64,000 bases of DNA from the NCBI GenBank assembly GCA_977020255.1, contig CDROCS010000555.1, positions 620,001 to 684,000 of the forward strand, written 5' to 3'. This stretch comes from Obrimoposthia wandeli. Its lineage: Eukaryota. The notes below the pieces were generated by a model that searched no databases, had not been told where the DNA came from, and worked only from the letters and a program-made list of their open reading frames with translations. Position 1 is the first letter of the stretch. Each line of letters begins with the position of its first letter. Below, one piece after another: positions 3,257 to 54,565 of the stretch. The translations under genes were made by a program, and so were the position numbers.

Positions 3257-4152
3257 GTTGAGAATATATTGTAGACATGCTCACTACATTGGACTCGGAA
3301 AAATCGACCAAGGCATTTACATTGGCTGCAGCGCCTCCCAGAAAGTCGCGGCACATATATCCTACTAATACCGCCTGGGATGGCAATTGTTCCACACCAA
3401 CCAGTAATTCAGCAACCGAAGAAGAAGCCGGGCCGACCGAGAAAGAAGCAGTCTGTACCAATTGAACGTCTCCTTTTATTTTTTTAAAATTTTCGGTAAG
3501 AGTTCATATATTTTGTAATTTTCTTTTCTAATTTCAGTAAATTGATTACTTATTGATTACTTAAATTATACTGGAGATAAAAACATTAATTTTAAAACAA
3601 TTAATTCCTTTTATATAATATAATTGTATTAAAATAATTTCGACGTTTATATAAATAAGTTCAATTTTATTTTTCATTTCGTTATTTTTAAAATAGAATT
3701 CACACAAATGAAGAAGCTCATGACATGGATAGAGGAGAATATCAGGAAGAATGAAAAGAAAGGAGACCTGCGAAAGAAGATTTTAAATTAGAATTTATAT
3801 GCTGCGGTCGCGACGGAGTGAAATAAAAAGGTAAAGATAAAATACAGACAACAAGCTGAAAGAAGAAGAATCCAGCAGCATCAACTGGACTAAGGCCCTT
3901 CTACTATTTTTGGTTATTGTAATGAAATGAGTCAACTAGAAAGTTCTTATTTTGGGGAAATGGTTGTTTGCCACGAAATCTACAATTGTTTGATATCTCA
4001 GATTTTTAAAAATACTAAGTAATGTACATTAGGATTTTTTGTTCTATGATGACCTCCTTGTTGAAAAAGATTTTGAGTGATAAATATAACTATTACTTTC
4101 AGATTTCTTACAATTTTTGTAAATAAATTATCAACGTCCGATTCCAGTTAAC

Positions 4153-4437
4153 TTACTGATATAAATCATTAATAATTTTTACATTTACTCTTTTCAATCT
4201 TTTGTACCAATTCACATCAAATCCTTCAACAAATTTTATTTCCTTCAACTTGCAAACTTCTGTTTGTGTTACTCCACTTTCTCCTTCTCCACCATGATGA
4301 AAATAAATATTTTTGAAACTGGAATGGAAAATAGCTTTATTTCGTAACAATTTACATACGAAATGTGTCTTTCTACTTCCATTGGGGCCAACAACTTGAA
4401 ATACGACATCTTTATTCAGCTACATATACTCTTTCAT
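4153..4437 (-). pseudogene. FtsK/HerA-like packaging ATPase, N-terminal fragment (copy C)
   Basis: decayed Walker A GPNGSRKT; ends near Walker B region IINDLY. Confidence 0.8.
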
Positions 4438-4444
4438 TTTAATT

Positions 4445-4453
4445 TTGTTTATA
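4445..4453 (-). promoter_or_regulatory. TATAAACAA motif upstream of ATPase (C)
   Basis: 28 nt before ATG 4425 (16 before ATG 4437). Confidence 0.65.
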
Positions 4454-4757
4454 TTATCATAGAAGTTTCCTTATTGAATAACATAAAGCTAGAGCTACTG
4501 ATGATGAAATCTAAAAATTAATTAATGAATATTTGGATATAATTTTATTTATTTGTGTTCGATTTATAAATTATCTAATAACATGTGATCTAACTAATAT
4601 TTTAATATTATCTCTTGTAGTATTATTATTTTTTATGCAGATAAAATTTGTTTACACTTTATTTTTTTAACAAATAAATATCGTCATTAAGACAATTCAC
4701 ATCATTAACAGTAATTATAGTATTATTCATTTGAAAAAACTATTAATTTAATTGGGT

Positions 4758-4766
4758 TTGTTTATA
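4758..4766 (-). promoter_or_regulatory. TATAAACAA motif upstream of small ORF (C)
   Basis: 36 nt before ATG 4730. Confidence 0.7.
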
Positions 4767-4809
4767 GTTTATAAAATAAAGATAACAAAATGTAATAAAA
4801 TAAATTTTC

Positions 4810-5102
4810 TCAAATCGATTCAACAGTGTATGGATAATACGAATTTCTCAACACCAAAATCATAACTTTACCACTGGAAAATGTATTTACACATAGCGGT
4901 ATAAACTACAAATATCTAAGTACCGGAAAAATCTCAGGTTCAAATATGCATTCTTCTTTAATTTTTTCAGCAATTTTATAAATATTTATTGGTTTCCCGA
5001 CATTGCCTGAGACTGTAATTGATTGTATGGTGCTGATTTGAATTCCAAGTGGTAAATTGGTATCATTCAAAGGTGTTTTGCATCCTATAACACGACAACT
5101 TC
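4810..5102 (-). pseudogene. TBP-like gene, exon 2 (copy C)
   Basis: GSCRVIGCKTP...ECIFEPEIFPVLRYL*FIPLCVNTFSSGKVMIL; preceded by a 31-nt GTTAGT...TTTAG intron at 5133-5103; exon 1 not recognisable. Confidence 0.8.
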
Positions 5103-6583
5103 CTAAAATATTCAATATGAAAAAAAAACTAACTTTAAACAGATGTTCAACATCTTAAACAGAAAGTTTAAAAAGTAGTTCCAAATTTTATATTCAATAA
5201 GAACAAATATTCAAAAATATCCGAGGAGCTGATGCAATATTTTTGATGAATATAGAAGAGATATAGATGTTCATACGTTTCCGAAAAAAGTAGCAATGAA
5301 CAATGAACAGTAAAAATTCGACTGTATGGTAGCAAGAAGGATGGAATGGGAACAAAGCTACTCATGTGGGTAATTGAACGTGCTCATATCCCTATGTGTT
5401 GATAATTTCTTTTTTCTATTTACTTTTTGTTTACCATGTCTCTTTCATTTGTATATTCCTGCATGTAATAAATTGTAATCAGTTTTAATTTTTTTATTTC
5501 ATAATATTTTAATCTTATTTAAATATATATTTTTATAAACATTTGTTTTTTTATCAGATTATTTATTCTAGAATGGACCCTCTTCTGAGTTATGAACGGA
5601 ATTTCTATTAACCGGAAATAATTTCAAAAGGAAAATCGGGTTATATATTAAAGATGCATCAAATTATACGAGTTATGAATCCTGGGAAAATATCAAAAGT
5701 GGAAAATAAATATCTAATTGAAATTTTAACATCTGATGTACAGAATTTCTATTGATCAATTCAAAAATATTTTAGAATTTTACATACCTGGTTATGCATG
5801 CATCAACTTTTCAGGTTGAAAGTGATCCCAGTTTGGCTTTTAGAGATGACCTTGGATATTTGTTTGATCCACTTTAGATGAATAAATATGGAATATTTCA
5901 ATATGACTTAATGAATTTTATGCTGATGCCGATGAAAAATACAGCCTCTTTATTACATAATCACTGCATTAGGCGCTAGAAGATCATATGAATACATTTT
6001 TAGATAAAAACTAAGATCTTGTATTCACTTATATAAGTAGCCACTAGACTTTCATTTAGTGTTCACTTGAACTAACAGTTTTCTTTAATTTGAATATAAT
6101 TCTGACGTTTTAATTAAATTTTTTTACAAGTGATTTAATTAATAAGCTTTATTAAAATTAATTACTTTTATTTTCATAAAACATTTTCTTGAGTATATTC
6201 ACGAAAAATGTGGAAATTTTTACAGCTTTCGTCAAGAACATAATAAGTATTCGCATAAAATACAAATAATATTTTCTGTAAAAAAACAATAAGCGTTCTC
6301 TCTATTTTATGTAAATAAATATTTTTGCTTAACTAACTTAATTTCCTCATTGTTAACATAGGTGTGGGAGATACATCCTTCCCAACCATTAACTCTGTAA
6401 ACCGAGTATCCAAAAAACAAATTTGAAAGGACATTATTAGTGTTTACTAATATTCGATTGTTGTAAGTTCTCGTTTGAATAATCATTAATTATTAAGAGA
6501 AAACAATCATAAAAATCTGACAATTATAAGTGCATAATCTGCATTCAAGAATTCTTAGCTTGGCTATCGGGGAAAATTTCGAG

Positions 6584-7320: not shown

Positions 7321-8362
7321 CTCTAGACAGTTTCCAATTGAATTGTCATTTGATAATAACATCTAATCACATTTAAGTACTATATAATATGACGTTATGT
7401 TGAAGGTCATATGCTTTATATGTCATACCAATCTCATGTCAAACGTTGCTTTAAGTGTAAAAACATGAATTCTTTTGTAATGTGTAATACTTTCTCGTTA
7501 TACTTTTGGCTAATATCTAGTAAAATTTGCATTTTTTGATGCTCATTAATAAATTTAGAAATATGATGCATTTTTTGGAATTGTTTTATTAAAAACTTTT
7601 AAGTTGGACGATTGTTACACATATGTAACATTTCATATTTTATCATTGATAAAATAGAAAAATAACAATTTAAACAAGAAAACTACTTATTTATTCAATA
7701 TTAATTAAATATTCATAAAAGTCATGTAACTTTTGTTTTCTTATATAAGTCTTACTTGTACTTTATTATTAGTTTTGATTAGGTTAAACTTGCAACTCTA
7801 ACCAGCAGATTTTTTATGATTTCCAATTCAAGTTTTATTACAGTGCCATTACAGTTGACTGACTAAAACAAATATGTCTCCGATATTCAATATCCCTAAA
7901 AGTAGGAGTCATTATCCAGTAAAATACTCCTGAGATTTGACAGACTTTCTGTTAATTTCCATAATTCCTAATTCAATTATGATACGACAAAAAATTCAAA
8001 ATCCAACATCGACAGTTACATAACTCAACTTCATTGACTTGGTTTTGCAACTCATGTTTATGTACGTAACAAAAGATTGAAAGGTAAAATAAAATGTATA
8101 TCCAATAAATATTTTTGTTTAGAATTTAACCCCTGAACGTGCAACTATGCCCACATTGGCCACCCAAATAAGAAACCCTAATATCTTGTAGAGTAATAAA
8201 CTAAAATCATTAATAATTGGTGAAAGTTTCTTTTAACAAGTCTACTAACGGAGGAAGGAGATTGTAGAATACTATAATAACGTTAGGATAAAGAATAAAC
8301 TCTCATTGTTAATTACTGTTAATTACTGTTAAGAAGAATTTAAATAATACAATTTTATTCTA

Positions 8363-8852
8363 ATGAAACTCGTAAATATAAATTATAAAGGTAGAATAGA
8401 AGATGATGTTTCGTACTTACCATTCAATGAATGGAAGCCGAGACAATATGTGAAAAAGTTTAATTATTTCACAGTTGTTATTTTTCCCACAGGTTAGTTT
8501 TTTATTTTATTTTCATATTGATTTTTTTTAAGAAATTGTCGTGTTATGGGATGCAAAATACCTTTGCTTGAGATCAATTTATCATTTGGAATTCGAATTA
8601 CTGCAATACAATCAATCACAATTTCAGCTAATCTCGGGAAACAAATAAATCTTTATTAAATTGCAGAGAAAATGAAAGAAGAATGCATGTTTGAACCGGA
8701 AATTTTCCCTGCTCTCATTTATTTGAAGTTTAAACCCCTATGTGTAAATATATTTTCCAGTGGTAAAGTTATGATATTGGGATTGAAATATTTTGATTAT
8801 CCAGACATTGTTGATTTGATTTTAGAAAATATATCTTATTACATCTTGTTAT
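8363..8852 (+). pseudogene. TBP-like (TATA-binding protein fold) gene, 2 exons (copy A)
   Basis: MKLVNINYKG...TVVIFPTG/NCRVMGCK...IQSITISANLG...FEPEIFPALIY...VNIFSSGKVMILG aligns to both TBP core repeats; intron 8493-8531 (acceptor decayed to AA); internal stop 8657; 3' end approximate. Confidence 0.85.
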
Positions 8853-8860
8853 CTTTTTTC

Positions 8861-8869
8861 TATAAACAA
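8861..8869 (+). promoter_or_regulatory. TATAAACAA motif upstream of small ORF (A)
   Basis: 33 nt before ATG 8894. Confidence 0.7.
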
Positions 8870-8893
8870 ACCCGTTTAAACCTATTGTTTCAA

Positions 8894-9170
8894 ATGAATA
8901 ATACTATAAATACAGACAATGAAGTGGATCGTCTTGTCAAAGAAATATTTTCAGGAAAAATTAAGGGTAAACAAATTTTATCAGAATTAAAAAATAATGA
9001 TATAACAAGAGATAACATTAGAAATATTGGTTAGATCACATGTTATTCGAAAATTTAGAAATCGAACACAAATAAATAAAATTATAGCCAAATATTCATT
9101 AATTAATTTTTGTATTTCATCTACAATAGCTCTAACATTATACATTTCAATAAGGAAACTTCTATTATAA
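8894..9170 (+). pseudogene. small conserved element ORF with C-terminal hydrophobic helix (copy A)
   Basis: MNNTINTDNEVDRLVKEIF...TRDNIRNI, frameshift, then VRSHV...LINFCISSTIALTLYISIRKLLL*; similar to 53673-53939. Confidence 0.65.
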
Positions 9171-9179
9171 TATAAACAA
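9171..9179 (+). promoter_or_regulatory. TATAAACAA motif upstream of ATPase (A)
   Basis: 28 nt before ATG 9199 (16 before ATG 9187). Confidence 0.65.
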
Positions 9180-9186
9180 TATTAAA

Positions 9187-9833
9187 ATGAAAGAGTTTAT
9201 GTAATAGAGCTAAATAATAATGCTGTATTTCAAATAGTTGGTCCCAGTGGAAGTGGAAAGACACACTTCGTATGTAAATTGTTGCATAATGAATCTCTTT
9301 TCAATTCTAGTTTCAAAAATATTTATTAGCATCATGGTGGAGGAGGGAAAGTGGACTAACAAGTTGAAGGGAATAAAATTTATTGAAGAATTTGATGCGA
9401 ATTGGTGTGAAATATTGATAAAAAAGATTTAATAATAATTGATGTTTTGTATCAGGAAGCTAACAAGGAATCGAACTTTAATAATTTATTTACAATGATT
9501 GCAAGACATTGTGAAGTAACAGTTATATTTATCACTCAAAATCCTTTTCACCAAGGAAGTCACCATAGAACAAGAAATCTTAATGTGCATTAGTTAGTTT
9601 TATTTAAAAATCCTAGAGATCAAACAGTTGTTGATTTCGTGGCCAGGCAGGCGTTTCCTCAAAATAAGAACTTTCTAGTTGATTCATTCCATGATGCTGC
9701 TAAACAAGCACATAAGTATATATTTATTGACTTTACACAAGCTTGCCCAGATGATTTACGTGTTTTAACAGACATATTTAATTCTAAAGCAGTGACTGTT
9801 TATAAACAATTAGAGAACAAATATAAAAAATAA
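9187..9833 (+). pseudogene. FtsK/HerA-like packaging ATPase (copy A)
   Basis: Walker A GPSGSGKT, FITQN, RTRNLN, FKNPRD, YIFIDF motifs; stops and frameshifts. Confidence 0.9.
9801..9809 (+). promoter_or_regulatory. TATAAACAA motif upstream of basic ORF (A)
   Basis: 40 nt before ATG 9841. Confidence 0.7.
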
Positions 9834-9840
9834 ATTTGCA

Positions 9841-9990
9841 ATGAATTTTAAAAAGTTGATAGTAAAACGTAAACATAAAGTAAAGGCAAAGCCTAAGAAA
9901 TTTAAAAAAAGAATCATTAAGAAAAAGAGAAGTGATAAATTAATCAAGTCTGTTCGAAGTAAAAGAAAACTTAAATGGCTTCGAATATAA
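9841..9990 (+). CDS. 49-aa highly basic protein (candidate DNA-condensing core protein)
   Basis: intact MNFKKLIVKRKHKVKAKPKKFKKRIIKKKRSDKLIKSVRSKRKLKWLRI; syntenic with Lys-rich ORF 54566-54874 sharing MNF and KLIK(S/T)V. Confidence 0.55.
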   Translation: MNFKKLIVKRKHKVKAKPKKFKKRIIKKKRSDKLIKSVRSKRKLKWLRI

Positions 9991-9994
9991 ACAA
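9986..9994 (+). promoter_or_regulatory. TATAAACAA motif upstream of cupiennin-like ORF (A)
   Basis: 31 nt before ATG 10017. Confidence 0.7.
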
Positions 9995-10016
9995 TATTAA
10001 ACATTAACTTTTTATA

Positions 10017-10346
10017 ATGAAGAAAATACAAAGAAGCATACCCTATTTTACAGCTTTGGTCAAAGCCTCTTCTCATAAGAAAATGAGTATTCTTAAAGCA
10101 TTTTCATCTTTTGTTGTAGATGATTTATAGGAAGTTTTGTATAATATAGTTTTGGGTGGAGTAAAAATGGGAAAATGGAGAAATGTATTAAAGAAGTATA
10201 GAAAAATTCTTCTAGATATTGCTAATGTAAAAAGTAAAAAGGAAAACAAAATATTATTCTTAAACAGAAAGGCGTTTTCATATGGGGCTGTTATACCAGT
10301 TGTTGCTTCAATTATCAGTAGTATTATAGCTGCGACACGTACATAA
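10017..10346 (+). pseudogene. small conserved Maverick/adintovirus protein with amphipathic C-terminus (cupiennin-like class), copy A
   Basis: homologous to 54913-55233 (PYF..L.KA.S...ILLDI.N); one internal TAG. Confidence 0.7.
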
Positions 10347-10350
10347 ACAA
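10342..10350 (+). promoter_or_regulatory. CATAAACAA variant upstream of micro-ORF/integrase (A)
   Basis: 33 nt before ATG 10375. Confidence 0.5.
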
Positions 10351-10374
10351 TTATTTCAAAAATCACTTAAAGAT

Positions 10375-10452
10375 ATGGGTGCTAACCCTTCTTTACCTAA
10401 ATTTAAAATTTCTATACATTCAAATTGTTGTAATGGAGAAGTTATGATTTAA
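10375..10452 (+). CDS. 25-aa micro-ORF MGANPSLPKFKISIHSNCCNGEVMI overlapping the integrase start
   Basis: read from sequence; homolog at 55239-55322 in diverged element B. Confidence 0.6.
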   Translation: MGANPSLPKFKISIHSNCCNGEVMI

Positions 10453-11450
10453 TCCAAAAGATCCACAGGAGTTTCAAAATTGACAAAAAGAACAAAACAG
10501 AATTACAAGAAAACGCCGAAATGGCTGAGCGATCAGTTAGCTTACAGTCTGAACAAGCCGATGAGAAGAAGGTTTCCAACTAGAGCTTTCAAAACCAGTA
10601 GTCCTAATAATTTATGGCAAATGGATTTGATGGAGATTATTCAATATTCTTCCATTAATAAAGGATACCGATATATTTTAACATGTATTGGTGTATTTAG
10701 CAGGTTTGCTCGTGCAATTCCAGTTAAAGCAAAGTCTTCAATAGCTATGCTTGAAGCCATCAAAGAAATATTAAAAGAGGACATTCCGAAAAATGTGCAA
10801 ACTGATTTAGGAAAAGAATTTTATAATCAGCAAATTCAATCATTATTTATGCAAAATAATATAAATCACTACTCGGTGTTTTCGCAGTACAAAGCAGCAG
10901 TAGTAGAAAGATTTAATCGTACTTTAAGGGATCGAATAAAAAGGTATTTCGCAAAAAATGGAAATAAAAAATGGATCCAAGTTTTACCTAAAATAATACA
11001 TGCATATAATCACTCTGAACATAGAAGTCTCAAAGGAATGAGACCTGTTGATGTTACTAATAAAAACTCTATGGATATTTGGATAGACAGGAATAAAAAA
11101 GAAAATATTAAAAAAATATATATAAGAAAAACGAATATGTTCGATTTTCTAAAATTAGCTCTACTCCATTTATTAAAAGTTTTGATCAGAATTGGAGCGA
11201 TGAAATATTTTGTAAAAGTAACATTGATCAAAAGAGTAATCCAATAATGTATACTATTAAAGATGCTAACAATAATATCGTTCACGGTAAATTTTACGAG
11301 CAAGAACTACAAGTACTATCAAATAAACCTAGCGTTTTCCGTATTCAAAAAATATTAAAATCTAAGGGTACCGGTAAACATAAACAATACTTTGTTAACT
11401 GGCATGGTTATTCAGACCCAACTTGGATATCAGCATCTAATATAATATGA
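10433..11450 (+). pseudogene. retroviral-like DDE integrase with C-terminal chromodomain (copy A)
   Basis: WQMD, QTDLGKEF and VVERFNRT catalytic motifs; QYFVNWHGY chromodomain; early TGA and frameshift near 11110. Confidence 0.93.
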
Positions 11451-12494
11451 AGTCTATGTATATGGTTTTACCTAGTAACGGATGCCCGAAGACTCAGTCG
11501 GGTAATGACGCTAGTAGCTTTATTATCGATTGGGAAAATCCTATAAATCTCCAAGGATAATGGGAAGCGGCTTTAACAGAATTTTCCTTTTATTATTCTC
11601 CAATTACTATCAGAAAAAACTCACATATTTCGTTTACAAAAGAAAATAATATTGAAAAAACAAAATGAAATTGTGATTAGGTTTGATAGTAAATGAAAAT
11701 TCTTTTACAATTGTATAGATAAAAAAGTGAAAGTAATATATGAAAATAACAAAGTCAGATTTAAAAATGGATTAAAATTTATTCAATTTATTCAAATTAC
11801 ATTTGAATCTGAAAAAGAAACTCTTTGATTGTAAACAAACAGTAGCTCGTAATAGACGGGATATAGTCTCATCTAAATCGGTTAGAAATGTTCCTGGTAG
11901 AGTATCAAGAGTGTTGTTATTTGAAACGAGAGTAAAGGATGTTGTGGAACTGAAAAAGATTTTAAAAGATTATAAAATAGACAGTGAAGTGAATTTATGT
12001 AAATTTATACAGAAGAAATTTAGTGAATATTTGAATAGTGAACATTAAAAAATGGTAAATTGACGTTAACAGTAAAGAACAATGTAAAACGGGTTTCATT
12101 TGATGATAAACTCGCTAAAAACCTCGGTTTAAACAGAAATACCTTTAAAACCCGTACAATAAAAACCATTAAAGCTAAAAATAATGCAACAATTTTAAAT
12201 ACTATAAATCATTTATATATTTATACTAATTTAATAGATCCAACGCTTGTAGGAAGACTACGAGTTCTACTTTTGAGAAAAATATGGATATCTCAAAGTC
12301 AAATCAAAGTTGGGGACGTTATCGGTATTCGTATAGATAAACTAATGTATCTTCCAGTTGTTCTCTATTCTATAAACAATATTGAAGTAAATATTAAAGA
12401 TAATTCCGGACAACTAATAGATTTCACGTACGGAGTCAAGATAAGTTTAACAATACATTTAAGAAAACAAAATGACGAATCCAGCAATAATTGA
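11447..12494 (+). pseudogene. minor capsid (penton) protein (copy A)
   Basis: MVLPSN...WENPI...WEAALTEF N-terminus; LYIYTNLI...VG...LLR...YLPV...IEVNIKD.SG C-terminus. Confidence 0.85.
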
Positions 12495-12849
12495 AGCTTA
12501 TAGTCAAATCCAACAAGGTGGAGAATTACAATATTTTGTTGGTAAACAATATGGATTCGGCTGGCTTAGAACATTAAGTAGATTTGTCTGTCTTCTTTTG
12601 AAGAGACTCGGGTGATTTGTATCAAATTTATGAAAGGAAATACCTTTCATCTAAGGATAATAAATAAATTCCAAATTTTTAGAAGCATGCACTCAATGAA
12701 CTTAATAATGTTTTACCTGACGTTGCTAATTTCATTAGAAAAGGTTATTCAAATGAAAGCCAAGAAAGTAGTGGATTTAAACGTAAAAAGAAGCAAAAAT
12801 TAATATAAACAAACGTAAGAAAGTTGAAGGAACAATATTTGCAAAATGA
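12472..12849 (+). pseudogene. conserved Maverick ORF preceding MCP (Q-x-G-x-G motifs, amphipathic helix), copy A
   Basis: QQGGELQYFVGKQYGFGWLRTL...INKRKKVEGTIF; homologous to 57425-57807. Confidence 0.75.
12804..12812 (+). promoter_or_regulatory. TATAAACAA motif upstream of MCP (A)
   Basis: 42 nt before ATG 12846, same spacing as in B. Confidence 0.75.
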
Positions 12850-14047
12850 GTTGAGCCAAAACCGAATTGTGTATTTTTGATAAACCTCTTCCGCAATTTG
12901 TTGTAGATAATGCTTCCTTTGAAGCAATATTTCTAGTTAACTCAATTTCAGGAACCACTTTAACCGATTAAGAATTTAATATTAATGGTTCCAATAGTGA
13001 GTATTTAGATTTGAATGATACTTTGCTTTATGTTCAAATAAAAGTATTAAAACGAGATGTAACACCTGTTAATTATCTATTTAATTCTTTATTTGGTGAT
13101 GCCATTATTACTCTTAATAATGTCAAAAATTGAAGGTGGAAATTCTTCCTATGCTCATAAAGCTTTGGTTGAAAGTCTATTGAATTATAGCACTGATACT
13201 CAAAATTCTAATTTGGCAATCATTGGTTATGATAAAAAGGCTGCAACTCGCAAAGAATGGATTTCAGAATCTGAAGCTTACGAAATGTTTGGGTCTATGA
13301 GATTGAACTTCTTTGAACAACCAAAATATTTTATTCCCGGTGTTAATGTACATCTTCATTTGAAAAGTAATAAATGGAATTTTTCTTTGATAAGCACGGA
13401 CATTCTAAAACCTAGACTTGATATTTTGGATACAAAATTGTATGTTCGAAGAGTTAAAACCGAGCAATCAGTTTTAATGGCACATAATATAGGAATGGGA
13501 AAAAACAATGCTTGTTATCCTATTAGAGAAACTAAACTTATAACATACTCTTTGGGAACGGGTACGCAACCTTTTGATAAGGATCAAAATTTTGGTGATG
13601 AAAGATTAACGAAATTCGTTTTAATTTCATTTCAATATACTGCAAAGTTTCTAGGAAATTATTCGACAGATGTAACTCAATTTGACAATCTTAATGTAGG
13701 TTCAGTGACACTTTCAAGAAATACTGATTATCGCGAAACATATAAAACAGATTTTGAAGGTAACGCTTATGCTTTGGCTTATACGCAATATATTATTTGG
13801 AATTTGGGTCAACGATAAAAATATAAACAATGGTATTTCTTTCACTGAGTTTAAAAGCAGCTGTCCATTCTTCGCATTTGTTGTGGCACCTGACTTTGAT
13901 ATAAACCAATGCCAACTACCAAAGGATGGAAATTTACGACTAGAAATTAAGTTCAATGCAGCTTTAACACATCCTACAACGGTGCTTATTTACGGAGTAT
14001 TTGATTTGGAAATACAAATCAATTAAAGCAGAACTGTCATATTATAA
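12846..14047 (+). pseudogene. double jelly-roll major capsid protein (copy A)
   Basis: KTELCIFD...EYLDLNDTLLY...YAHKALVESLLNY...GNLRLEIKF...TVLIYG; several stops and frameshifts. Confidence 0.9.
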
Positions 14048-14048
14048 A

Positions 14049-14428
14049 ATGAAGAATGACATTTTTAAATTTATATTTATTATTTTTAATTTAGTTCAGT
14101 ACAAGTACAAGAATCAGCAGAGAAGGTCTTGGGTGATAAATTAAATGGAGTTTATCCTATTGATATGATTCCATTTTTTCAATCTGGAGGATACATTATC
14201 AATACTCATAATTCAAATTTACCAGGAGAACATTGTATAGCTATTTATGTTAGATAGTGGACAATACATGTATTTGATCCACTTGCAACGTATTATCCAC
14301 ACAAGCTTGTTTCTACTATTCAAAAAGGATGAAGAAGAGTATTTTACAACAAGAAACATTACCCGGATCCAGCAACAACAAACTGTGGACATTTATGTAT
14401 TTTATGGTTATCGTTGCAAAACGAATAA
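14049..14428 (+). pseudogene. adenain-like cysteine protease
   Basis: GVYPID...YIINT...PGEHCIAI...VFD...CGHLC (His/Asp/Cys catalytic motifs); two stops; possible 41-nt intron 14054-14094. Confidence 0.88.
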
Positions 14429-14660
14429 TGAGTTCTAATAATATATATATTTTTAAAAACATGTTTTATTTTTTAATACCCTACAAGATTAAAATATAAG
14501 GGTAAGATAATAAAAGACATAAGACAAAATTATTTTAATACATTTATTCAGCAAAATATCACATGGAGATCTGTCAGCAAAGATAAGGCCCAACCTAAAA
14601 AAGTATCGAAATAACAAAAAGTTAGAGTCATGGTGCCATTGAGATTTAAAATTTTAAAAA

Positions 14661-16688
14661 TTAAACAAAACAAATCAAAAATGATAAATAAATTCGGAAG
14701 TGTCCATAAGCCAGACTAGCGTTCTTTTCTACCCAAAAGCGCTTGTCGTCATTACTACTCAATGCGATTTTTGTTGACTTGTGGGAATACAGTTGGTGGG
14801 CTCTTGAAATAAATCTAGTTTGCTCAATGCTTTCAATACACCCAGTATCATAAACTTTCCGGTAAGCCTCATGTGTAAGATTGCTTTTCCCACACACTTT
14901 GCTCTCATTGAACATGTATTATTATATGCATGTAAGCTGTAGCATTTAGAGTGTAGGAAAATACAATCATCATACAAAACCTGTCTCTCGCTTTCATCCT
15001 TAAATTTCCCTATAATATCCTCTAAACTGATAGAGTGTAGAGAATGGTTAACGGGATATGTATGGGTATCACAGAAGTGATCCCTAAACATTGCCAGTAA
15101 TAATTGATTATCTAAACTAACATGCTTACATTCTAAAAAGAAAGAATCAGTGTCCCTAGCTGCGATTTTGATCTCACAATTGAATTCTTGGCGATATTTA
15201 TCTAATTCTGTATATTGAAGCTCGTACATTCTGAGTTTGGAAATGTCTAAAATCGTTTGACCAATATAATACGGTCGATCGAGACAAATACTCTGTTTTC
15301 CTAATAACACTGCTACCAAGTCATCTGCAATTGTAAAACTACGCTTGAAGTTGTACTTGATAGTATATGTTATTAGTTTACGCTCATTATTGCAAAACCG
15401 TAGACAAATACGCTGCAGTTTTTCCAAAGGGACTATTACGTTTATACTGGTAAAAATCTCGATAAAATTAGATAGGGGCCAAATTATGTTTTCTAGATTT
15501 CTTTTCAATATAGTCTTTAAACACATAGTTTTGACTAAAGCTTATAGCACGATGAATTCGAGTGATTGTCGCTCCCAACTTTAAGTAAAATGGAAGAAGT
15601 CGCCAATCCATTACATAGTTCAACTACTCTTATTGTGTTAACAACATTTTTTTAACCTTTGAATTAGGTCGACATTGATGAACAGGTGCTACTGTAAGAT
15701 CATCTAATTTATCATGCACATTGGGAGGGATTGTTAAGTCAACCTCAATTAAATAGCCGACGTCTGATGAAACTGTATCAACAGTAGTCAAATCTGTCAT
15801 CAACCTATTCAACTCTTCCTCATAATAAATCCACTTAAAGTTGGCATGTGGTAGATGTTGAGTAAGCCCCCACCCATACACATTATTAATGTCGGTGTAC
15901 AGAATCTCCATGGATTGATTTTTGACAACAAGATGTTTGTTGAAAAAAGTCATTCCACCGCGTATACAATAATCCTACATATGATACATCGCGGGATCTT
16001 GCAGTAATTCAATATTAATATAAAGAGTTTTTATTGCCGTTGCCCACGAAAGACCAGGTAAACTAAAGAACTGCATAGGATCTAGCCTATCTTCTGCTAA
16101 AGATTTTACACGAAAGGACTCAAACACATCAGCTAAAAGATAAATGTCTAACTTCATATATAAAAGCATATAATCTAGAAGATTTTGAAAATTATTCTCC
16201 CATAATGTACGAGCCTTATTATAGTCTTGAAGACTTACACCCTCAAATTCGGTTATGGGGAGATTTCTGTAATATTTTGTAAATCTGCGAAGGTTTTCGC
16301 AAATTTATATGAAAAATTCCCCTTATCATTAACCACACAAATAACATGATATACTAGAATTATCTATAGGCATGTTATATAGCGTCTTGTCATCAGGATT
16401 CAGTGTACATAATGTCAAATGTTTGCTGTAAGAGAGTTCGTATCGGAATACATGCAAATATCTATGACATCACTTACACCTTATCCTAACAGTTTAGGCT
16501 CTATTATCTAAATTTAGAAAGTGATCTAAATTGAGAATTGCAGCATAGTGGAATTTCTTATTATGTTTGAGCAAAATTAAGTCCCCTAATTTTTACTCCT
16601 TAAAATTACATCTACAAAAAAAAATTTAAATGTCTTTATCTATTACATTAGCTGGGATATTAGTAATATATTTGTCTCATGCATTTTC
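14661..16688 (-). pseudogene. protein-primed family B DNA polymerase (pPolB)
   Basis: DIYLLADVFE, IRGG, LYTDINNVYG, NSPFGKT, RDTDS, GKFKDE, DDKR...LAYGH motifs; fragmented; 5' limit approximate. Confidence 0.93.
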
Positions 16689-16775
16689 CTGATTAAAAAT
16701 AAAAAATTAAATAAAACATATGACATATTTAATTACAATTTCAAAAAATCATCAGAAAAATCGTAATAAAAAAAC

Positions 16776-16997
16776 CTGATCTAGGCAATCCAACTGTTGG
16801 AAGCTAGTTGGAAGTATTTTTCATTGACAGCATCCATTCAGCTGTCGTCAGTTAACTCAACGAAATTGGATTCCTCGATGTCCTCCAACCAGCTGTTGTC
16901 GCTCTACTGAGGCTGCTCCAACTCGAAATCTGACAGGGTGATATTTTCCATCCAGTCATTTTTTTTAAAGTCGTATACTTTTTTCGATCCAATTCAT
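16776..16997 (-). pseudogene. acidic Trp-repeat segment of element A (unknown product)
   Basis: NWIEK...NDWMENI...NSWLEDI...DS*MDAV...NSWIA; needs one frameshift in a poly-A run. Confidence 0.4.
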
Positions 16998-17059
16998 CTA
17001 AAACATAAAAAAATTCAATATCAAAAATAGATTTAATTGTATCGAAAATACGTATTTCA

Positions 17060-17286
17060 CAAAAAACATTATGTCATTATATCCATTTTAATAAATGAAA
17101 ATAATTAATGAGCTATAAATTAGTAAATATTTTCTTATAATCTAAACTCCTAAACGGGATATCTACATGAAAATATGAAATGTAAAGGATGAAAAACTTC
17201 ACTATATCCATAATACATAAATCTTTTATAATATAATTTCTATTTTTATTAATTAAAGCCTCAAAGTCTATGATATATTCTTGCAT
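17060..17286 (-). pseudogene. DEDD-like exonuclease-family accessory ORF of element A
   Basis: MQEYIIDFEA...YIIKDLCI...L.NY.HLLKW pattern as in Maverick-associated exonuclease-like ORFs (recognised by eye). Confidence 0.55.
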
Positions 17287-17313
17287 AATTACCCAAATAT
17301 TTAGCAAATCCCT

Positions 17314-17322
17314 TTGTTTATA
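17314..17322 (-). promoter_or_regulatory. TATAAACAA motif upstream of DEDD-like ORF (A)
   Basis: 36 nt before ATG 17286. Confidence 0.7.
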
Positions 17323-17379
17323 ACGAATAAAAATTAAAAAAACATTAATCAAAATATATTAAAATATCAAAGTACTCCA

Positions 17380-18354
17380 GATTCATTTTTTTCGTTAAGA
17401 TTGGTACATATTTTCAATTCTCCTATGAATATTAAAATAAATTATATTAAATGTAAACCTACCTAAATATTTTGAAAGTCCTGCTGCCTTCGCGAATCTG
17501 GAAGCATTGCCGGTTGCAGGGTCTCCAGTTCCGCCAGCAATTCGTCCAATCCAGCTTCATCCCAGGCCCTCTTCAAGTTCTGGCTGGTAGATGCTGTTGG
17601 CAGAGGAGAAGCAGTTTCCAAGCTCTGGCCAAATTGTGGCTGATGCTTAACGGACCTGGTGCCATCGAAGTCTCCTGCAGGCGTCGTTGACTGGGAGGCG
17701 GATTAATCTCGATCGGAGATACTGGTATCCTCTTCTATAAAATTGGCCCGTCGTCCACGGGAGATGTGATAATCTCCTGTCGGCCAATCACCGCCTCAGA
17801 AGAATTGAGCTTTGCGGTACTACATTTTCTGTAGCGCTTCGTCTTCCGCACAGCTGCTCGCTTCATTTGTCTCTGTGGGAAAGGATAAATTTCCCCCACT
17901 TCTCTCCTGTTAATTGTATTGGTTCCTGCAGAAAACATCAATAAAATTTAAACATTTAAATTATTTACCTCAATAACATACAGGTTTGCCTGTTTCTCCA
18001 ACTTAACCTTCTTCCGGTGGACTGTTTGGGTTTTGACCCGATGTCTTCGGGGATTTCTAACCACCACATGCTTCCTATCCACGGGTAGTTTGAGAGTTGA
18101 CTCCTCCATAACTTCCTCCATCAAGTCGGCTTCCTATGTGAATAATTAAAATTATTATCTAATTTAAAATAATTTACCTTGATATTATCCAGAGTCGTTA
18201 TGTATTGATGCTTACTCTTTGGCTCCTCCTGACTGCATTGACTCGCCAAGTACTGCGGTTCTATCAGCCTCTCCACCGTGGTCACTGACGGTGTCAAATT
18301 GAGTTGAAGTTTCTGAAAATGAAATTAAAAAACATGTGAAATAAATTAACGCAC
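17380..18354 (-). pseudogene. multi-exon low-complexity orphan gene with four 40-44 nt introns
   Basis: GT-AG introns at 18354-18313, 18177-18134, 17968-17926 and 17462-17423; spliced frame open across the 18177 and 17968 introns. Confidence 0.6.
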
Positions 18355-18399: not shown

Positions 18400-19350
18400 A
18401 TTTTCTACAACAGTTTGAACTTTTCCAATACAGTTATCATGTTGCTAACAGTAACTTCACACCATGCTTAATAAATATTTTTAATTGCAATTTTGATAGT
18501 ATAGTTCTTCAAAAATCAGTTAATGGAATGGCATTTTCTCCTGTCGTAACTTTAATTGCTTGAAAAAAGCTTGTCTCAAATAATAAGTCTTGAATGTTGC
18601 GATCACTTCTCGGTCTATCAGCTATAATAACGAAGTTGTGCTCGGCTGTAAAAATACAATTTTAACATTGTAGTTAAAATCCTTAAGAGCAAGTGAATGT
18701 TCTGGTGCGTTATCTAATAAAGAAAGAATTTTAAATTCAATGTCATTTTCTTTGCAATATCGTTCAGTTGCGGGACAAAAGTAATTTGTGAACCAGTCTT
18801 CAAATAAATCTCTCGTAACCTACACCTTTCGATTCGATCGCCAAAATACTGGGAGAGTATTTTTGACATATCCTTTTAGAGCTCATGGATTGTTTGTCCG
18901 GTTAACAAGTATAGGCTTCAATTTAAATTCACCAGATGCATTGCCACCTAACTAGAGTCAGACGAATTTTTGCAATTTTATACCGTGGTTGTGCTTTTTC
19001 TTTTTCAGTTAAATATGTTCGAGTAGGCATTTTCTTCTCAAACAATCCTGTTTCATCCATATTAAATATTTGATGATAACTATAATTACCATCTTCAATA
19101 ATCTTTTTTAATTCATCAGGATATTTTGCGGCTGCTTCTACATCGGCACCAGCACTTTCACCAACAATTCTAACATTTTTAATTTTTGTACGTTCTTCAA
19201 AGCGATTGAACCAACCGCGGCTCGCATTAAAATATTTATCTTCATTTGTAGTCGTAGAGGTCTCCCCTTCATTTTCATTTTGAGTGGTAACTGCACTAAA
19301 AAGACTTCGATTTTTTTCTTGAATAATACATTGACTCAGTGGAATTCTTT
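18400..19350 (-). mobile_element. Tigger/pogo DDE transposase remnant
   Basis: ASRGWFNRF...IFNMDETGLF...VTRDLFEDWF...LLDNAPEH. Confidence 0.85.
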
Positions 19351-48300: not shown

Positions 48301-51034
48301 CGAAGTTATAAGCATATAAGCACTTTTTAAAACCCCTACACTATTCGCTTGATAAATATGCCTGCAACAAACTCCAACAAAGTACATATATACTGTTTAT
48401 CTTGTTTTTTAGCTTTTTGAGTAGGCTTTTCGCAAGCCATATTCAGTTAAGAACTCATCAGTCAAAAGCAAAGTTAAATTATGAAATAACTTCGAAATAA
48501 ACACTAATAATAATAATAATAATGTAGCCATGTTCGAAGTTGTATGGTTCTACAGTTTGTAAAGTGATCATTCGTACTGTATTTCAGTGGATTGACCAAT
48601 ATTCGACTAATTCTCCCGCAAATGTTGTGCATTATTATTTTTGTTCAAATTTACGGTTTGATTACTTTCTTTTGTAACCATGTAGTTAAATTTATATAAG
48701 TTTAAGACTTAGACCCAAATGTATGCATTAAAATCTCATTAAGGAAAGCTAAATTCCAAAACTGCTCATATTATGAACAATGAGCTACTAGGGTTTATTC
48801 TAATAATTTTAATAAGGTTCGGTCATTTACACACGATTTTCGTTTGCGTGAAGTGATCGTTTGGAATCATCCTTCGAATCATTATTTGATAGAGGAAAAT
48901 AAATTTGCAAATATTGATATTATTTCCACCTCTCTAAATCAATAATAATTAGTCAGCTATAAAATTTTTATATTCAAGTTTTTAGTTTTCCTTTCTTTTT
49001 ATTAATGTACTTCAAGACCAATCAACAACGACACCATTGAAGTATAAGAAAAGAAGCTGTGCATTCACAACAAATTTGAAGAAGGTTTATAGAATGTTAT
49101 GGAAATACAACGACATCAAATTCAATGTTCACTAAAAAAGCAACAGGGAATTTTTAATCTCTTTTGGTGGCAGAAGAGACATAGCGAGTGAAAAACACAA
49201 ATCAGATTAAAAAAACATATTTTAAATTGATTATGAAGTTAGAACAATGGTCAACACATTTTGAGGACATTTCAGGTTTCAGTTGAAAGTAGTTCGAAAT
49301 ATATCTCCAAATTTTCCAAATTATTCAATGATAGAAAAAAATTTATTTAATGAAATTCATTCATTTTTTAAAAATGCATGTGAAAGTAAAATTCCCCAAT
49401 GGGACCAAAATAAAACAAGTGACGATCTACGTTGGTTAGAGATTTTAAAGCATTTTAAAATCGAGGATATCCTTGCGAAAATCTAGAAATTGCAAAGTTT
49501 GTTTTGTGGGCCAGGATCAAATACCGCATGCGAAAGAAAAATTTAGAATAATTTGAACGCAATTGTAAGTTGATACTTTAAAAGCTATGGTGATGATGAA
49601 AGGAAATTATATGCATATATACTGAATAAGAAAGAAATTCTTAAGAGTATACTGTAGTGAAAAATAGTGAAAGGGTAAAGTAGAAACCGAATTCATTGAT
49701 TATTGATTTAATATCGATCATGAATGTAATTATTTGTGGAAATATGAGCAATGGAAATAAATTTTAAGGTATTTATGTCGGATTACATATATTTTTTTGT
49801 TTATCATGCAAGGTATATTTTTGGTTTCGTCCTTTTTCAGTTGTATAAATACATGTATCTAAACATTGTATAAATTTGAAATTTTTATGGAAAGTATATT
49901 AGGTAGCAAAAAACCCAGTAAATTCGTCGGTCATTCACTCGATTTTAATATTATATCTAAATGATCGTATCATGAACTTAGATGTTTTAGAGTTGTTTTC
50001 CAAAATTATTAAATTCACAGATAAATTAATGAAATTATGATGATTAAACCGCTAAACTCGTGTGTAAAATGTATGTGTAATTTTTTCTTAATGCAACTGT
50101 TAATTAATTTTCGTGAAACCATATATGTGGTGGATATTTTGTCAAAATTAAGAAGCCAAATAAAATATTAATCTTTGCAATTTTGTAATATCAGAATTAT
50201 TTGCTCTGATTTTGCAATTTACAGTATTTTTTCATTTACCACTGCACAAAAATTAGGGTTTTCTCGCGATTTTTAAGTCGCAATGTTAGATTATATATTA
50301 AATAGGTCTCAAGAAAGATTCGTTCATTAGGTTGCACTACCAACAAAACATTTGCTACTGAAATAAAATATAAATTTCTAAAATAATTTGATAGTTCTGA
50401 AAATAAATCTGGCATTTATTTTTGCCTAGCATATCCAGTCCTTCAATCAAATCCAATTATAACCACTACAAAATAAATTATTGGCTTCTACAATCCACAA
50501 TGGCAACATGTATCCTTATATTCCACTAACGCGTGTTGTTTCAATGAACATATCGTGGGGTACACAAAACTCGAGTGATTTTTGTTTGTTAGTGTCAGCG
50601 GAGATGATGCCAGTTACTTCACCGATAAAATAGGGCTTATCTGACATAAATTATGCATCTACCCTTAGTGAAGATAGGTAAATTCATCTTACCCCTCTTC
50701 AAATTAAAGCCCCTGAAAAATCGCTACAGTTTTTAGTATCTTAACAAAAATCAACGGTCCATTGATCAGGGATATTTTCAATAACAAAAATTCGACAACA
50801 GTTTCATTGAGTAAGATCTGGCTGTGTGGCGATCATTTAATGTGGTAGTTACAACATAATTCAGCTGACTTCATTGGAATTGTTACAGCACACTGACCCA
50901 AATGACAAAATTGAAGTATGCTAAATTTCGTATTTTTCTGCATATCTTCGCACAGATGACCCGACAATATCAAATAGGCACCAAATAAAAAATGTGAACC
51001 CCAAATCATAGTCTAGGTAGCTATAAGAGTAGTA

Positions 51035-51111
51035 TATAGTGTCGGTACTAAACCAAAGGAACCTAACCTCCCCGGGGGGGTAGGTTCCTTTGGTTTAGTA
51101 CCAACACTATA
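51035..51111. repeat. 31-bp-arm inverted repeat (hairpin) with G/C-rich centre
   Basis: 51035-51065 tatagtgtcggtactaaaccaaaggaaccta pairs with 51081-51111, one mismatch. Confidence 0.95.
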
Positions 51112-51602
51112 GTCGTCTAAAAAATTCTGTATACTGTCATTTTTAGACAGAATGTCGTTAAAATGTCTAAATTTTAGACAGAATGTCATTTTTTTATAAA
51201 ATTAGCTTAAAATGACTCAAAAAAAAATTCTACAACTCATGTCTGGTGTTGTATGCAGGATTTTGAGACTTGACTAAAAAGTCTCGAAATCACGCATACT
51301 GAACCAATGGTAATAGGTCCCCCTCAGGGGGGTACCTTTTACTGCAAAACCATTTTTGGCGTTGTATGCATGATTTCAAGAACATTTTCAAATATAGCGC
51401 TAAATATCTTTCCATTTAAAACAAAAGGTGATTTTAAGTAGATTTTAAGTGACCAAAGTCTCCCTTACGGAGCCTCCTAAGAGGGAAGCCCTTCATCCGA
51501 AGACCGGGCAGCACCTTTGGCAAAGTTTATATTTATATTACTTTTGTTTATAGTTAAAGAATAATAAAATCAATTAATCATGTATTCATATGATAAATTA
51601 CA

Positions 51603-52112
51603 TTAAACTTTCTTATGTCCTTCAGTAATTCTCCAAATAGGCTTCTGTCTCCCGAGTCTATCGACTTTGAATCCTTGAATTTGAATAAATAAAATCCAAT
51701 AATTGCTTTTGGGAAATTCTTCTTCATAGTAAGTATATATTCCTTCAAACAGATGTTCATCAGCTTTAATAAAAGCACTAAAGTTTTCAATTTTGATATA
51801 TAATTTCATTCTTCTGAAAATAGCATTGATATTGTTAATATCATTTTGATGGATCCTTGAGATGACATAATCAAACTTGGACTTTGTTAGCATAACAGGG
51901 TATTTTAATCCAAAGGTAACAGACATCTTGAGAAAATTCATTGTATAACTGAAATAAGGTACAGATTCTTTGAATAGGTCTTCTGTTTCTCCATTAAAAA
52001 TATCCTCTAATTCTGTATCATCAGAATCTATCTGTACAACTTTGCTTGTATTTAAAATTTCATAATTCTTCTTCTTTGTGCTCTTCAAAATCGGTTTTTG
52101 TAAATTGAACAT
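51603..52112 (-). CDS. hypothetical protein of element B, divergent from the TBP-like gene
   Basis: 169-aa ORF in very AT-rich DNA; no family recognised; may be frameshifted near the 3' end. Confidence 0.55.
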   Translation of the reverse strand: MFNLQKPILKSTKKKNYEILNTSKVVQIDSDDTELEDIFNGETEDLFKESVPYFSYTMNFLKMSVTFGLKYPVMLTKSKFDYVISRIHQNDINNINAIFRRMKLYIKIENFSAFIKADEHLFEGIYTYYEEEFPKSNYWILFIQIQGFKVDRLGRQKPIWRITEGHKKV

Positions 52113-52168
52113 AATGAATGAGAGTAAACTGAAATGTTTCGATAGTTATAGTTGACTACTTGAATCTG

Positions 52169-52205
52169 ATTGGTTGATTCTCATTGGATAATATGAAACT
52201 ATATA
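52169..52205 (+). promoter_or_regulatory. host-type promoter candidate: two ATTGG (reverse CCAAT) boxes and TATATA upstream of the TBP-like gene
   Basis: ATTGG at 52169 and 52183, TATATA at 52200, ATG at 52237; lies in the 124-nt divergent intergenic gap. Confidence 0.4.
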
Positions 52206-52236
52206 TGTTTGTGACATTATCAATTATTATCACATA

Positions 52237-52716
52237 ATGAAAATAATCAATATAAATTATAAAGGTAAATTTAAGGGAAGTGTTAGTCACTTACCTTTTC
52301 GATCAAAGAAACCTATACAATATGTTGAAAAGTTAAAGGATTATACTATAGTTATATTTCCAACAGGTATTATTATTATTATTATTATTATTACTTCTAC
52401 TATTTAGGTTCATGTAGAATTATGGGTTGCAAACAACCAATCAAACATGCTCAAAATATAGAAATTGAATGTATTCAATCTCTAAGTATCCTAGTGAATA
52501 TCAATAAGAAGGTTAATTTGTATAAGATATCTATGAAAATGGGAATAAATTGTATGTTTGAACCAGAATTGTTTCCAGCACTCAGAATTTTAAAATATAA
52601 TCCTCTATGTGTTAATGTGTGTTGCTAGCGGAAAAGTGTTTATTCATGGTATTAAAGATTTTTATTATCATTGTCAAGTCGAGTTTATTGTATTTTTTCT
52701 TGAGAGTTTCTTATGA
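52237..52716 (+). pseudogene. TBP-like gene, 2 exons (copy B)
   Basis: exon 1 52237-52366 MKIININYKG...TIVIFPTG; 41-nt GT-AG intron 52367-52407; exon 2 SCRIMGCK...FEPELFPALR...VNV(fs)FASGKVFIHG; single +1 frameshift near 52620. Confidence 0.88.
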
Positions 52717-52720
52717 ACAA
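52712..52720 (+). promoter_or_regulatory. TATGAACAA variant upstream of IAP (B)
   Basis: 35 nt before ATG 52747. Confidence 0.5.
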
Positions 52721-52746
52721 ATATATGATTTTTTGATTTTTTAAAA

Positions 52747-53649
52747 ATGCTTGTTGATTATATACTTCATTATATAACTGTTGATGATGATGTTTTAGTT
52801 AGACGAAAAGTAGATTATTCTAGAATGAAAGTTTTACACTGGAAATATAGACGTGAAAGTGAAAGATTAAAATCTTTAATTATACATTTTAAAGTGAAAC
52901 AATCTGTATATAATTTAGCTAAAGCTGGATTTTATAAACATTATGATGATTCAACTGATAAAGTAAAATGTATATACAGTCAAGGTGCAATATCCGAATG
53001 GGAATGGTATCTTAAACCAATGAAACAACATATGAAATTTTTTCATACATGTCCATTTCTTTTAAAGTTAAATGTTTCAAATGTACCAATAATTGAAACT
53101 ATAGTCAAGAAAATTGATTTTGATACATCACCATTGATTGGAAAAGTATATGTATCAGATATTGTTCTAAAATTACCTGATACATGTTATTCAAAAAGTT
53201 TAGGACCCTATAATGATGCTAATGTTATTGAGAAAAACGAATCAGATTGTATAATTGAATATCCTTTAACTACGGAAAAATTCGACATGTTGATGGATAC
53301 CAACAACATCAGATATTTGAAAAGGTTTTTCACGAAAGATAGAATAAAATCTGTTTTAAAATATAAAATGATGCGATATGGAGAATACAATTCACTCTTT
53401 GAAATGATTTGTGATTTAAATAATTTAGAAATAAACCCTGAAAAACAATACATAAATATACTTTCATACATGTTAAAAGAACCTAAATGTGTAGTATGTT
53501 TGAATAATCATATTGAATTAGTATTTTTACCATGTGGACATGTAAAAACATGTAATTCATGTTCCATAAGGTTACATTCATGTTCAGTATATAGACATAT
53601 AATTGAAAGGAGAGTAAGAAATGTAAAATTTCATGGTATAAACAATTGA
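52747..53649 (+). CDS. inhibitor-of-apoptosis-like protein (one BIR + C-terminal RING)
   Basis: RLKS...LAKAGFY...DKVKCIYS...W...P..QH....TCPFL; CVVCL...FLPCGH..TC..C....CSVYR; one Zn ligand altered in each domain. Confidence 0.85.
   Translation: MLVDYILHYITVDDDVLVRRKVDYSRMKVLHWKYRRESERLKSLIIHFKVKQSVYNLAKAGFYKHYDDSTDKVKCIYSQGAISEWEWYLKPMKQHMKFFHTCPFLLKLNVSNVPIIETIVKKIDFDTSPLIGKVYVSDIVLKLPDTCYSKSLGPYNDANVIEKNESDCIIEYPLTTEKFDMLMDTNNIRYLKRFFTKDRIKSVLKYKMMRYGEYNSLFEMICDLNNLEINPEKQYINILSYMLKEPKCVVCLNNHIELVFLPCGHVKTCNSCSIRLHSCSVYRHIIERRVRNVKFHGINN
53637..53645 (+). promoter_or_regulatory. TATAAACAA motif upstream of small ORF (B)
   Basis: 36 nt before ATG 53673. Confidence 0.7.
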
Positions 53650-53672
53650 AATTTGATGATATGTATATAAGA

Positions 53673-53939: not shown

Positions 53940-53943
53940 ACAA
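53935..53943 (+). promoter_or_regulatory. TATAAACAA motif upstream of ATPase (B)
   Basis: 45 nt before ATG 53980. Confidence 0.7.
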
Positions 53944-54553: not shown

Positions 54554-54565
54554 TATTTCTTAAAA

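Follow-up and report, generated by a model that had tools for sequence, protein, structure and literature searches.

A stretch of 64,000 nt from the 1.35-Gb, AT-rich assembly of Obrimoposthia wandeli (GCA_977020255.1, contig CDROCS010000555.1, positions 620,001 to 684,000; hereafter the window, in whose own numbering all positions are given) holds three Maverick/Polinton pieces, termed C, A and B, which share a short motif, YATAAAC, upstream of many of their genes. Sequence comparison makes it very probable that this motif is a core promoter. With a probability of about 70%, we further read it as an element-specific late promoter that would serve the packaging gene and most structural genes and would be recognised by the elements' own short TATA-binding protein (TBP)-like protein, acting through host TFIIB and RNA polymerase II (Pol II); which protein reads it is a weaker step than the core-promoter assignment. 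The TBP-like gene, a PF00352 member detected by Pfam in all three pieces, is the key to what the motif is.

Enrichment and position of the motif in the window

With element limits set by blastn against family copies, the 9-mer TATAAACAA was found 17 times in 19,740 nt of element DNA, against a single copy in the 44,260 nt outside (Fisher 2.6e-8). Markov models of orders 0–4 trained on the elements predicted 1.25–1.9 copies (order 3, P 4e-12), and the word ranked top among 9-mers after a GAA microsatellite and first among its 252 anagrams (mean 1.7 copies). These background-corrected counts, inside versus outside the elements, uphold the enrichment claimed in the original prediction, a reading of this DNA from its letters. 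Every exact copy listed there was in place, on the plus strand at 8861, 9171, 9801, 9986, 12371, 12804 and 13822 and on the minus strand at 17322, 4766 and 4453, as was the variant CATAAACAA at 10342, and the proposed strand specificity following gene orientation was borne out. The claimed positioning before start codons was likewise recovered, 14 of the 17 element copies lying 31–45 nt before a gene start and the others being those at 12371, 13822 and 51552; here, starts of the A and C ATPase genes and of B gene X were taken from family copies or homology, as there the copy in the window is degraded or has an ATG closer by. The short spacings first given for the ATPase sites ran to ATGs that are not the family start, and family copies give 34 nt.

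The sites are family features: the motif core is intact in 9–14 aligned A copies per site (11/13 at worst) and, for B, in 6–9 of 7–10 copies at seven exact sites. A stronger claim, that A and C provide an independent replicate of the motif, held only in part. Over 1.2 kb, remnant C and A share 81% identity, and by this resemblance C belongs to family A, hence it is no independent replicate. A and B are alignable in patches only (67–74% identity), and their alignment indicates that most motif sites of the two are homologous by descent. What stood is the retention of sites in diverged elements. At five homologous A/B sites, 11–21 of 40 flanking bases are identical compared to all nine bases of the 9-mer; around the motif retained in A and B, most flanking sequence has drifted almost to chance similarity. 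Real independent support for the motif comes from this flank divergence, from other lineages and from the choice of synonymous codons. The original prediction made no connection between the motif and the TBP-like gene.

The same motif in other lineages

A scan with the TBP alignment yielded 62 metagenome loci, of which five weak (L098–L102, 25–27% identity) and 20 redundant ones were dropped, leaving 37 loci (171.7 kb); L041 and L143 were added for the later tally of short-TBP loci. Counting open reading frames (ORFs) of at least 80 amino acids from their first ATG, YATAAAC occurred 28–50 nt upstream of 60 of 218 starts (2.6 expected), and its reverse complement at none of the same 218. In genome families A, B, D and E, represented by one copy each, 15 of 49 starts had a positioned motif (0.7 expected). 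An unbiased 7-mer scan ranked ATAAACA and TATAAAC first in both the metagenome and the genome-family sets.

The resulting consensus, YATAAAC(RW), has a spacing peak at 36 nt. Position 1 is T or C, substitutions at positions 2–6 abolish the enrichment, and positions 8–9 prefer R and W. At position 7, C is by far the most frequent (54 vs. 2.3 expected), followed by T (15 vs. 2.3) and A (8 vs. 2.3).

The motif is a signal at the DNA level, linked to the start that follows it. The 76 positioned sites fall into a stop frame (13), a Y/H-K frame (12) or an I-N frame (12), or lie outside called ORFs (39), and the site preceding gene X is located in the TBP-like gene in A and in the IAP-like gene in B. 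Near a downstream start, 27 of 49 isoleucine–asparagine dipeptides are encoded by the motif codons, as compared to 32 of 296 elsewhere (P 2e-11). ATGs are tolerated from +10 to +26 after the box (28 vs. 18 expected) and rare from +27 onwards (4 vs. 10.7), a modest scarcity that would fit an RNA start ~30 nt past the box.

Gene classes and two probable promoter types

Sorting of ORFs by protein cluster separated genes with and without the box. Among the gene names used here, TBP, integrase, chromodomain, ATPase and IAP are based on Pfam; penton, PZ, cupiennin-like, protease, exonuclease-like and pPolB are putative labels, in part positional. YATAAAC preceded the ATPase gene in 16 of 22 cases, the cupiennin-like/lysine-rich cluster in 11 of 14, phospholipase in 5 of 6, capsid in 7 of 13, exonuclease-like in 6 of 11 and penton in 8 of 19. 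It was found at none of seven protease ORFs and none of ten pPolB ORFs, several of the latter being fragments with uncertain starts; the absence noted originally before the protease, pPolB and the B integrase holds. Integrase ORFs had no box at 28–50 nt (0/15), and nine of them had one at 53–93 nt. A site 96–107 nt upstream of PZ recurred in seven of nine lineages, and in the other two it stood at 33–34 nt. The copy at 12371 hence marks a conserved position and is neither an outlier nor noise. For its companion at 13822, the distance of 227 nt to the protease start was confirmed, yet the copy is conserved in all 14 aligned A copies.

TBP-like ORFs had no YATAAAC within 9–130 nt upstream (0/40), and 16 of them had a canonical TATA box. 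The pentamer TCAKT followed 12 of 31 canonical TATA boxes as compared to 2 of 79 YATAAAC boxes (4.5% by chance). The TBP genes of the A family carry TATATAAAG, then TCAGT ~30 nt further on and the ATG a few nt later (three of four copies printed); the spacing from this box to the ATG resembles that from YATAAAC to its ATG. Together, these sequence patterns indicate that Polintons carrying the short TBP have two promoter classes.

The putative protease gene has a feature of its own. In six of six lineages printed, its start overlaps or adjoins the stop codon of the capsid gene and consists of a first exon of 5 nt followed by a GT-AG intron of ~40 nt. This arrangement lies at ~14045–14100 in the window, at L005:7487–7535 and at the same place in B, D, E, L045 and L062, mostly with no box at the usual distance. 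Reinitiation on the capsid mRNA may be how the protease is translated.

A short TBP-like protein with a probably remodelled DNA face

The TBP-like gene is split by a GT-AG intron at the same position in A (38 nt, 8493–8530) and B (52367–52407). Introns of this gene are very short (32–41 nt), and many metagenome homologues, of 144–181 amino acids, are uninterrupted. That both the TBP and the protease genes contain GT-AG introns points to transcripts made in the nucleus by Pol II. A profile search returned 331 clusters at E ≤ 1e-10, cellular TBPs included. In the structural model P0002 (pLDDT 88.5), the TBP sheet and the second-lobe helices are present and the first 90 residues form no helices; all 44 Foldseek matches of this model at E ≤ 1e-3 were TBPs (TM 0.6–0.7). 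As modelled, the protein has a TBP fold.

An alignment of 40 non-cellular rows with eight cellular TBP rows revealed which parts of this fold are kept. The EPE-F stirrup is maintained (its two glutamates in 37/40 and 40/40 rows), as are three of the four intercalating phenylalanines, while the first-lobe phenylalanine loop is gapped in 40/40. Polar residues occupy positions that are hydrophobic in cellular TBPs (V>N 37/40, V>R 39/40, L>N 40/40), accompanied by N>S in 38/40. In TBP structures, these positions face the DNA, and the alignment points to a remodelled DNA face of the protein. In cellular TBP, glutamates of the C-terminal lobe are described as binding TFIIB (PMC7221094, PMC12529657). 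Pfam searches of 45 window pieces and 29 further ORFs gave no match to a TFIIB family.

Co-occurrence of box and short TBP

As a same-host control, we used ten loci of a second capsid group (L123–L142), omitting L123 and L135 as fragmentary or nested and drawing the limits of the other eight by hand. These eight of ten loci, all of one family, had no positioned motif at 79 starts. Nor does the group have a TBP-like gene of its own, the single match lying in a nested copy of A. In five related contigs that lack the short TBP, L144 among them and four of the five incomplete, no positioned motif was found either (0/39). Searches of a viral contigs set with the TBP, capsid and ATPase alignments found no relatives, and the capsid search of a phage set gave no match, which leaves few TBP-less controls.

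On the positive side, 19 of 20 loci that have both the short TBP and the ATPase contain at least one positioned motif, and they are spread over the TBP tree, which is poorly resolved and includes one wrong ORF (the L067 row). L143, which has the short TBP, showed the positioned motif at one of seven starts plus two AATAAAC variants.

Two further observations concern neighbouring groups. Many genes of the second Polinton group (PF21738 capsid) have a T-run and TAAAAA at the ATG, which we take to recall promoters of cytoplasmic large viruses. L144, a Polinton contig binned in a bacterial metagenome-assembled genome, encodes a full two-lobed TBP (L144:11568–12122, PF00352 E 1e-36) and has TATAAAAG-type, canonical TATA-type boxes; its gene is probably a separate TBP capture.

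A proposed mechanism and its competitors

In the mechanism we propose, the TBP-like gene would be transcribed first, by host TBP acting on an ordinary promoter (a TATA box, often accompanied by a TCAKT initiator). The element TBP would then bind YATAAAC in the minor groove and recruit host TFIIB and Pol II; transcription would start ~30 nt past the box, giving 5′ leaders of a few nt, and the packaging and structural genes would be turned on late. Because the genes abut, each promoter would be written into the 3′ end of the preceding gene. We infer the start-site position, binding by the element TBP, TFIIB recruitment and late timing, the last from gene class alone.

Several observations weigh against this reading. 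The sites share descent, so all P values given above overstate independence and show the evidence at its strongest. The copies in the window are decayed, with most of their genes interrupted. TATAAAT is enriched as well, at the counts given for T at position 7. The integrase and PZ sites are farther from their genes than a TATA box with a short leader would be, and the deficit of ATGs past +27 is modest and could be caused by low G content. Six loci with a short TBP and no ATPase or capsid in the fragment (L041, L042, L044, L047, L052 and L065) had the positioned motif at none of 33 ORFs, and few contrasts underlie the co-occurrence: a single family, in eight copies, makes up the same-host control, and all but one of the five other contigs are incomplete. 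Finally, there is the C(–25) TATA variant, which is presumably TATAAAC. Wild-type TBP has been crystallised on the C(–25) variant, as the title of PDB entry 1qn3 states, so host TBP could use the box.

The last point leads to the most durable alternative, in which the box is a core promoter read by host TBP or TFIID as a weak TATA variant, perhaps with an element-encoded activator, and the TBP-like protein is otherwise employed, for instance as a decoy, titrating TFIIB away or turning off host transcription. Besides the crystal structure, it would account for the TATA-like spacing and for a TBP-like protein without one intercalating phenylalanine and the first-lobe helices. Against it stand the strict preference for C at position 7, the T/C at position 1 and the scarcity of the initiator at the box (2/79 vs. 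12/31). The box is, moreover, excluded from the TBP-like gene itself (0/40) and absent from Polintons without the short TBP, and the near-invariant remodelled DNA face suits a protein that reads sequence. We therefore consider host TBP an unlikely reader.

A second possibility is that the machinery of a large helper virus reads the box, as virophage promoters match those of giant viruses. Shared promoter motifs have been reported for virophages as well as for Polinton-like viruses (PLVs), and family B, without a polymerase in most fetched copies, needs help in trans. The spliceosomal-type introns, the element's own TBP and the recurrence of one motif across distant lineages and habitats make this improbable, however, and we prefer the element's own TBP as the reader.

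No more credible is the view that coding constraint (YKQ, INK) produced the motif as a side effect, or that it serves the upstream gene as a 3′-end signal. Many sites do lie in conserved C-termini, and 27 of 236 motifs stand 0–9 nt before a stop. Against this, the peak towards the next start (73/236 at 30–49 nt) is sharper than that towards stops. The use of all three frames and the synonymous-codon test (P 2e-11) largely refute a coding by-product, and a poly(A) signal is rejected as position 1 avoids A, which would create AATAAA. Chance is rejected by the enrichment over the Markov background. Least probable of all is a host forkhead site (consensus RYAAAYA) acting as upstream activator: ATAAACA is indeed the top 7-mer (61 vs. 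3.0), but GTAAACA is not enriched (2 vs. 0.7), nor is the reverse orientation (1 vs. 6.6), and the spacing is fixed.

Elements, genes and motif sites in the window

Element A (8331–18346, plus strand) is a decayed copy of a very high-copy Maverick/Polinton family, ~90% identical by blastn to family copies and with Pfam matches to rve, Chromo and TBP; 150 matches to its major capsid protein were scored in G000. Remnant C (3623–5949, minus strand) is an older family-A copy with remnants of the TBP-like, X and ATPase genes and motifs at 4766 and 4453. Element B (51028–58424, plus strand) is a truncated copy of a diverged family that has an IAP gene.

The retroviral-type integrase PF00665 scored above cut-off in A and B, together with Chromo, and the A32-like packaging ATPase PF04665 did so in an A copy (E 4.4e-6). 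The major capsid match to PF21738 (E 0.002–0.013) is below cut-off, and its position and size fit a double jelly-roll capsid protein. A terminal inverted repeat (TIR) of 546 nt, 88% identical, was found in a B copy. For the candidate pPolB, A copies match a 1089-amino-acid ORF of L045 whose sole Pfam match is Endonuclease_7; the polymerase label follows a DTDS motif. Similarly, the putative adenain-like protease, with no match in Pfam scans, is so named from gene position and motifs. The exonuclease-like ORF of A had no match in the Pfam scan.

On the plus strand, A encodes the TBP-like protein, X, the ATPase, a lysine-rich ORF, a cupiennin-like ORF (a name we take from the adintovirus literature; no family match), an overlapping ORF starting with Met-Gly, the integrase-chromodomain protein, the putative penton, PZ, capsid and protease; the candidate polymerase and the exonuclease-like ORF lie on the minus strand. 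The TBP-like gene (8363–8865, plus strand; PF00352 E 1.5e-7, above cut-off) is interrupted in the window copy, and its family stop codon lies inside the first motif. This TATAAACAA copy (8861–8869) stands 33 nt before the small gene X and is intact in 12/12 aligned copies. The next plus-strand copies precede the A32-like packaging ATPase (9171–9179; 34 nt in family copies, core intact in 12/12), the lysine-rich ORF (9801–9809; in the ATPase 3′ end in the Y-K-Q frame, 40 nt, 13/13) and the small cupiennin-like ORF (9986–9994; 31 nt, 11/13). Two plus-strand CATAAACAA variants follow, one containing the upstream stop codon 33 nt before the Met-Gly ORF (10342–10350; 11/13) and one within the chromodomain of the integrase, 69 nt ahead of the putative penton (11379–11387; 12/14). 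Further TATAAACAA copies on this strand lie in the penton 3′ end in the I-N frame, 101 nt before PZ (12371–12379; 13/14), in the PZ 3′ end in the same frame, 42 nt before the major capsid gene (12804–12812; 14/14), and inside the capsid gene, ahead of the protease (13822–13830). On the minus strand, the copy at 17314–17322 precedes an ORF with an exonuclease-like start by 36 nt (9/9), with the motif found in 6 of 11 homologues.

In B, plus-strand TATAAACAA copies at 53637, 53935, 54533, 54878, 57391 and 57769 lie 33–45 nt before genes, and a minus-strand copy at 51552 is within the TIR. The TBP-like gene (52237–52716, plus strand; PF00352 E 4.9e-4) is separated from X by a BIR+RING (IAP-like) gene (52747–53649, plus strand; Pfam BIR and zf-C3HC4_3), whose 3′ end contains the 53637 motif. 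Family B (L033/L034) forms a ~9.8-kb TIR-bounded element that keeps TBP-like, IAP, integrase and capsid genes; a polymerase match is missing in seven of ten fetched copies, and the family is likely a non-autonomous Polinton.

The Met-Gly ORF includes a Cys-Cys pair and, in a different frame, overlaps the start of the integrase (10375–10450 and 55240–55330); it measures 72 amino acids in A copies and is conserved in related elements; its product is possibly a lipid-modified virion protein. Outside the elements, a Tc5/DDE_1 (pogo-like) transposase remnant (18625–19348; Pfam) adjoins A, and the minus strand at 22840–43433 carries putative exons resembling a host receptor tyrosine kinase, to judge by HRDLA and DVWSFGV motifs. 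Tandem repeats of 44 nt, 57 nt and ~35/108 nt occupy 62694–64000.

Relation to known systems and implications

The gene set, comprising an integrase with chromodomain, an A32-like ATPase, a putative jelly-roll capsid, candidate protease and pPolB-like genes and TIRs, resembles that of Mavericks, Polintons and adintoviruses as given in the main texts of PMC8502044 and 10.1101/697771. In their main text, Starrett et al. 2021 (PMC8502044) mention 'TBP' only in a figure legend, with no motif, gene-class split or regulatory role, and the word 'promoter' does not occur in the main text of that article or of the preprint 10.1101/697771. A literature search on polinton, maverick and adintovirus promoters and TBP, largely among open papers, found no account of the motif or of its pairing with the protein.

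The Polinton protein shares with cellular TBP the fold, the EPE-F stirrup, three phenylalanines and a box ~30 nt upstream of the presumed start; it differs in a first lobe without helices and one phenylalanine, in polar DNA-facing positions and in a box with C at position 7. TBPs of large double-stranded DNA viruses have a diverged N-lobe, for which escape from host regulators was proposed; their C-lobe glutamates are mostly lost, and a TFIIB is encoded by the viruses themselves (Ravarani et al. 2020, PMC7221094). In contrast, the Polinton protein keeps the glutamates, and no TFIIB family was matched in the scanned ORFs.

Another likeness is to beta- and gamma-herpesviruses, where, according to PMC12529657, a viral TBP-like protein (KSHV ORF24) and a non-canonical TATA-like box (TATTWAA) on structural genes operate beside ordinary early promoters, using host Pol II. 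This TBP mimic has a more polar DNA face, a trait it has in common with the Polinton protein. ORF24, however, acts in a six-protein complex, has a Pol II-binding extra domain, keeps four phenylalanines and lacks the TFIIB glutamates (same source), whereas the Polinton protein of ~150 amino acids has three phenylalanines, keeps the glutamates and is paired with YATAAAC, with none of the partner families among the scanned ORFs. The herpesvirus-type TATTAAC was not enriched at Polinton starts. By analogy, the Polinton system probably works like the herpesvirus viral TBP late system without being a member of it, as a convergent solution.

On balance, we lean slightly towards a more general picture, in which a widespread Polinton clade would switch from early to late genes by means of one protein: a TBP of 150 residues, its DNA face reprogrammed, would bind YATAAAC and use host TFIIB and Pol II, having evolved independently of the herpesvirus and poxvirus solutions. 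If true, this would be the smallest known orthogonal TBP/promoter pair, and these 'transposons' would keep a virus-like temporal programme. The short TBP offers a candidate natural altered-specificity TBP for the study of TATA recognition, and the motif helps annotate gene starts in compact, overlapping Polinton genomes. With a promoter of 7–9 nt and a candidate reader, the expression of Maverick/Polinton genes and the possibility of a viral life cycle become testable.

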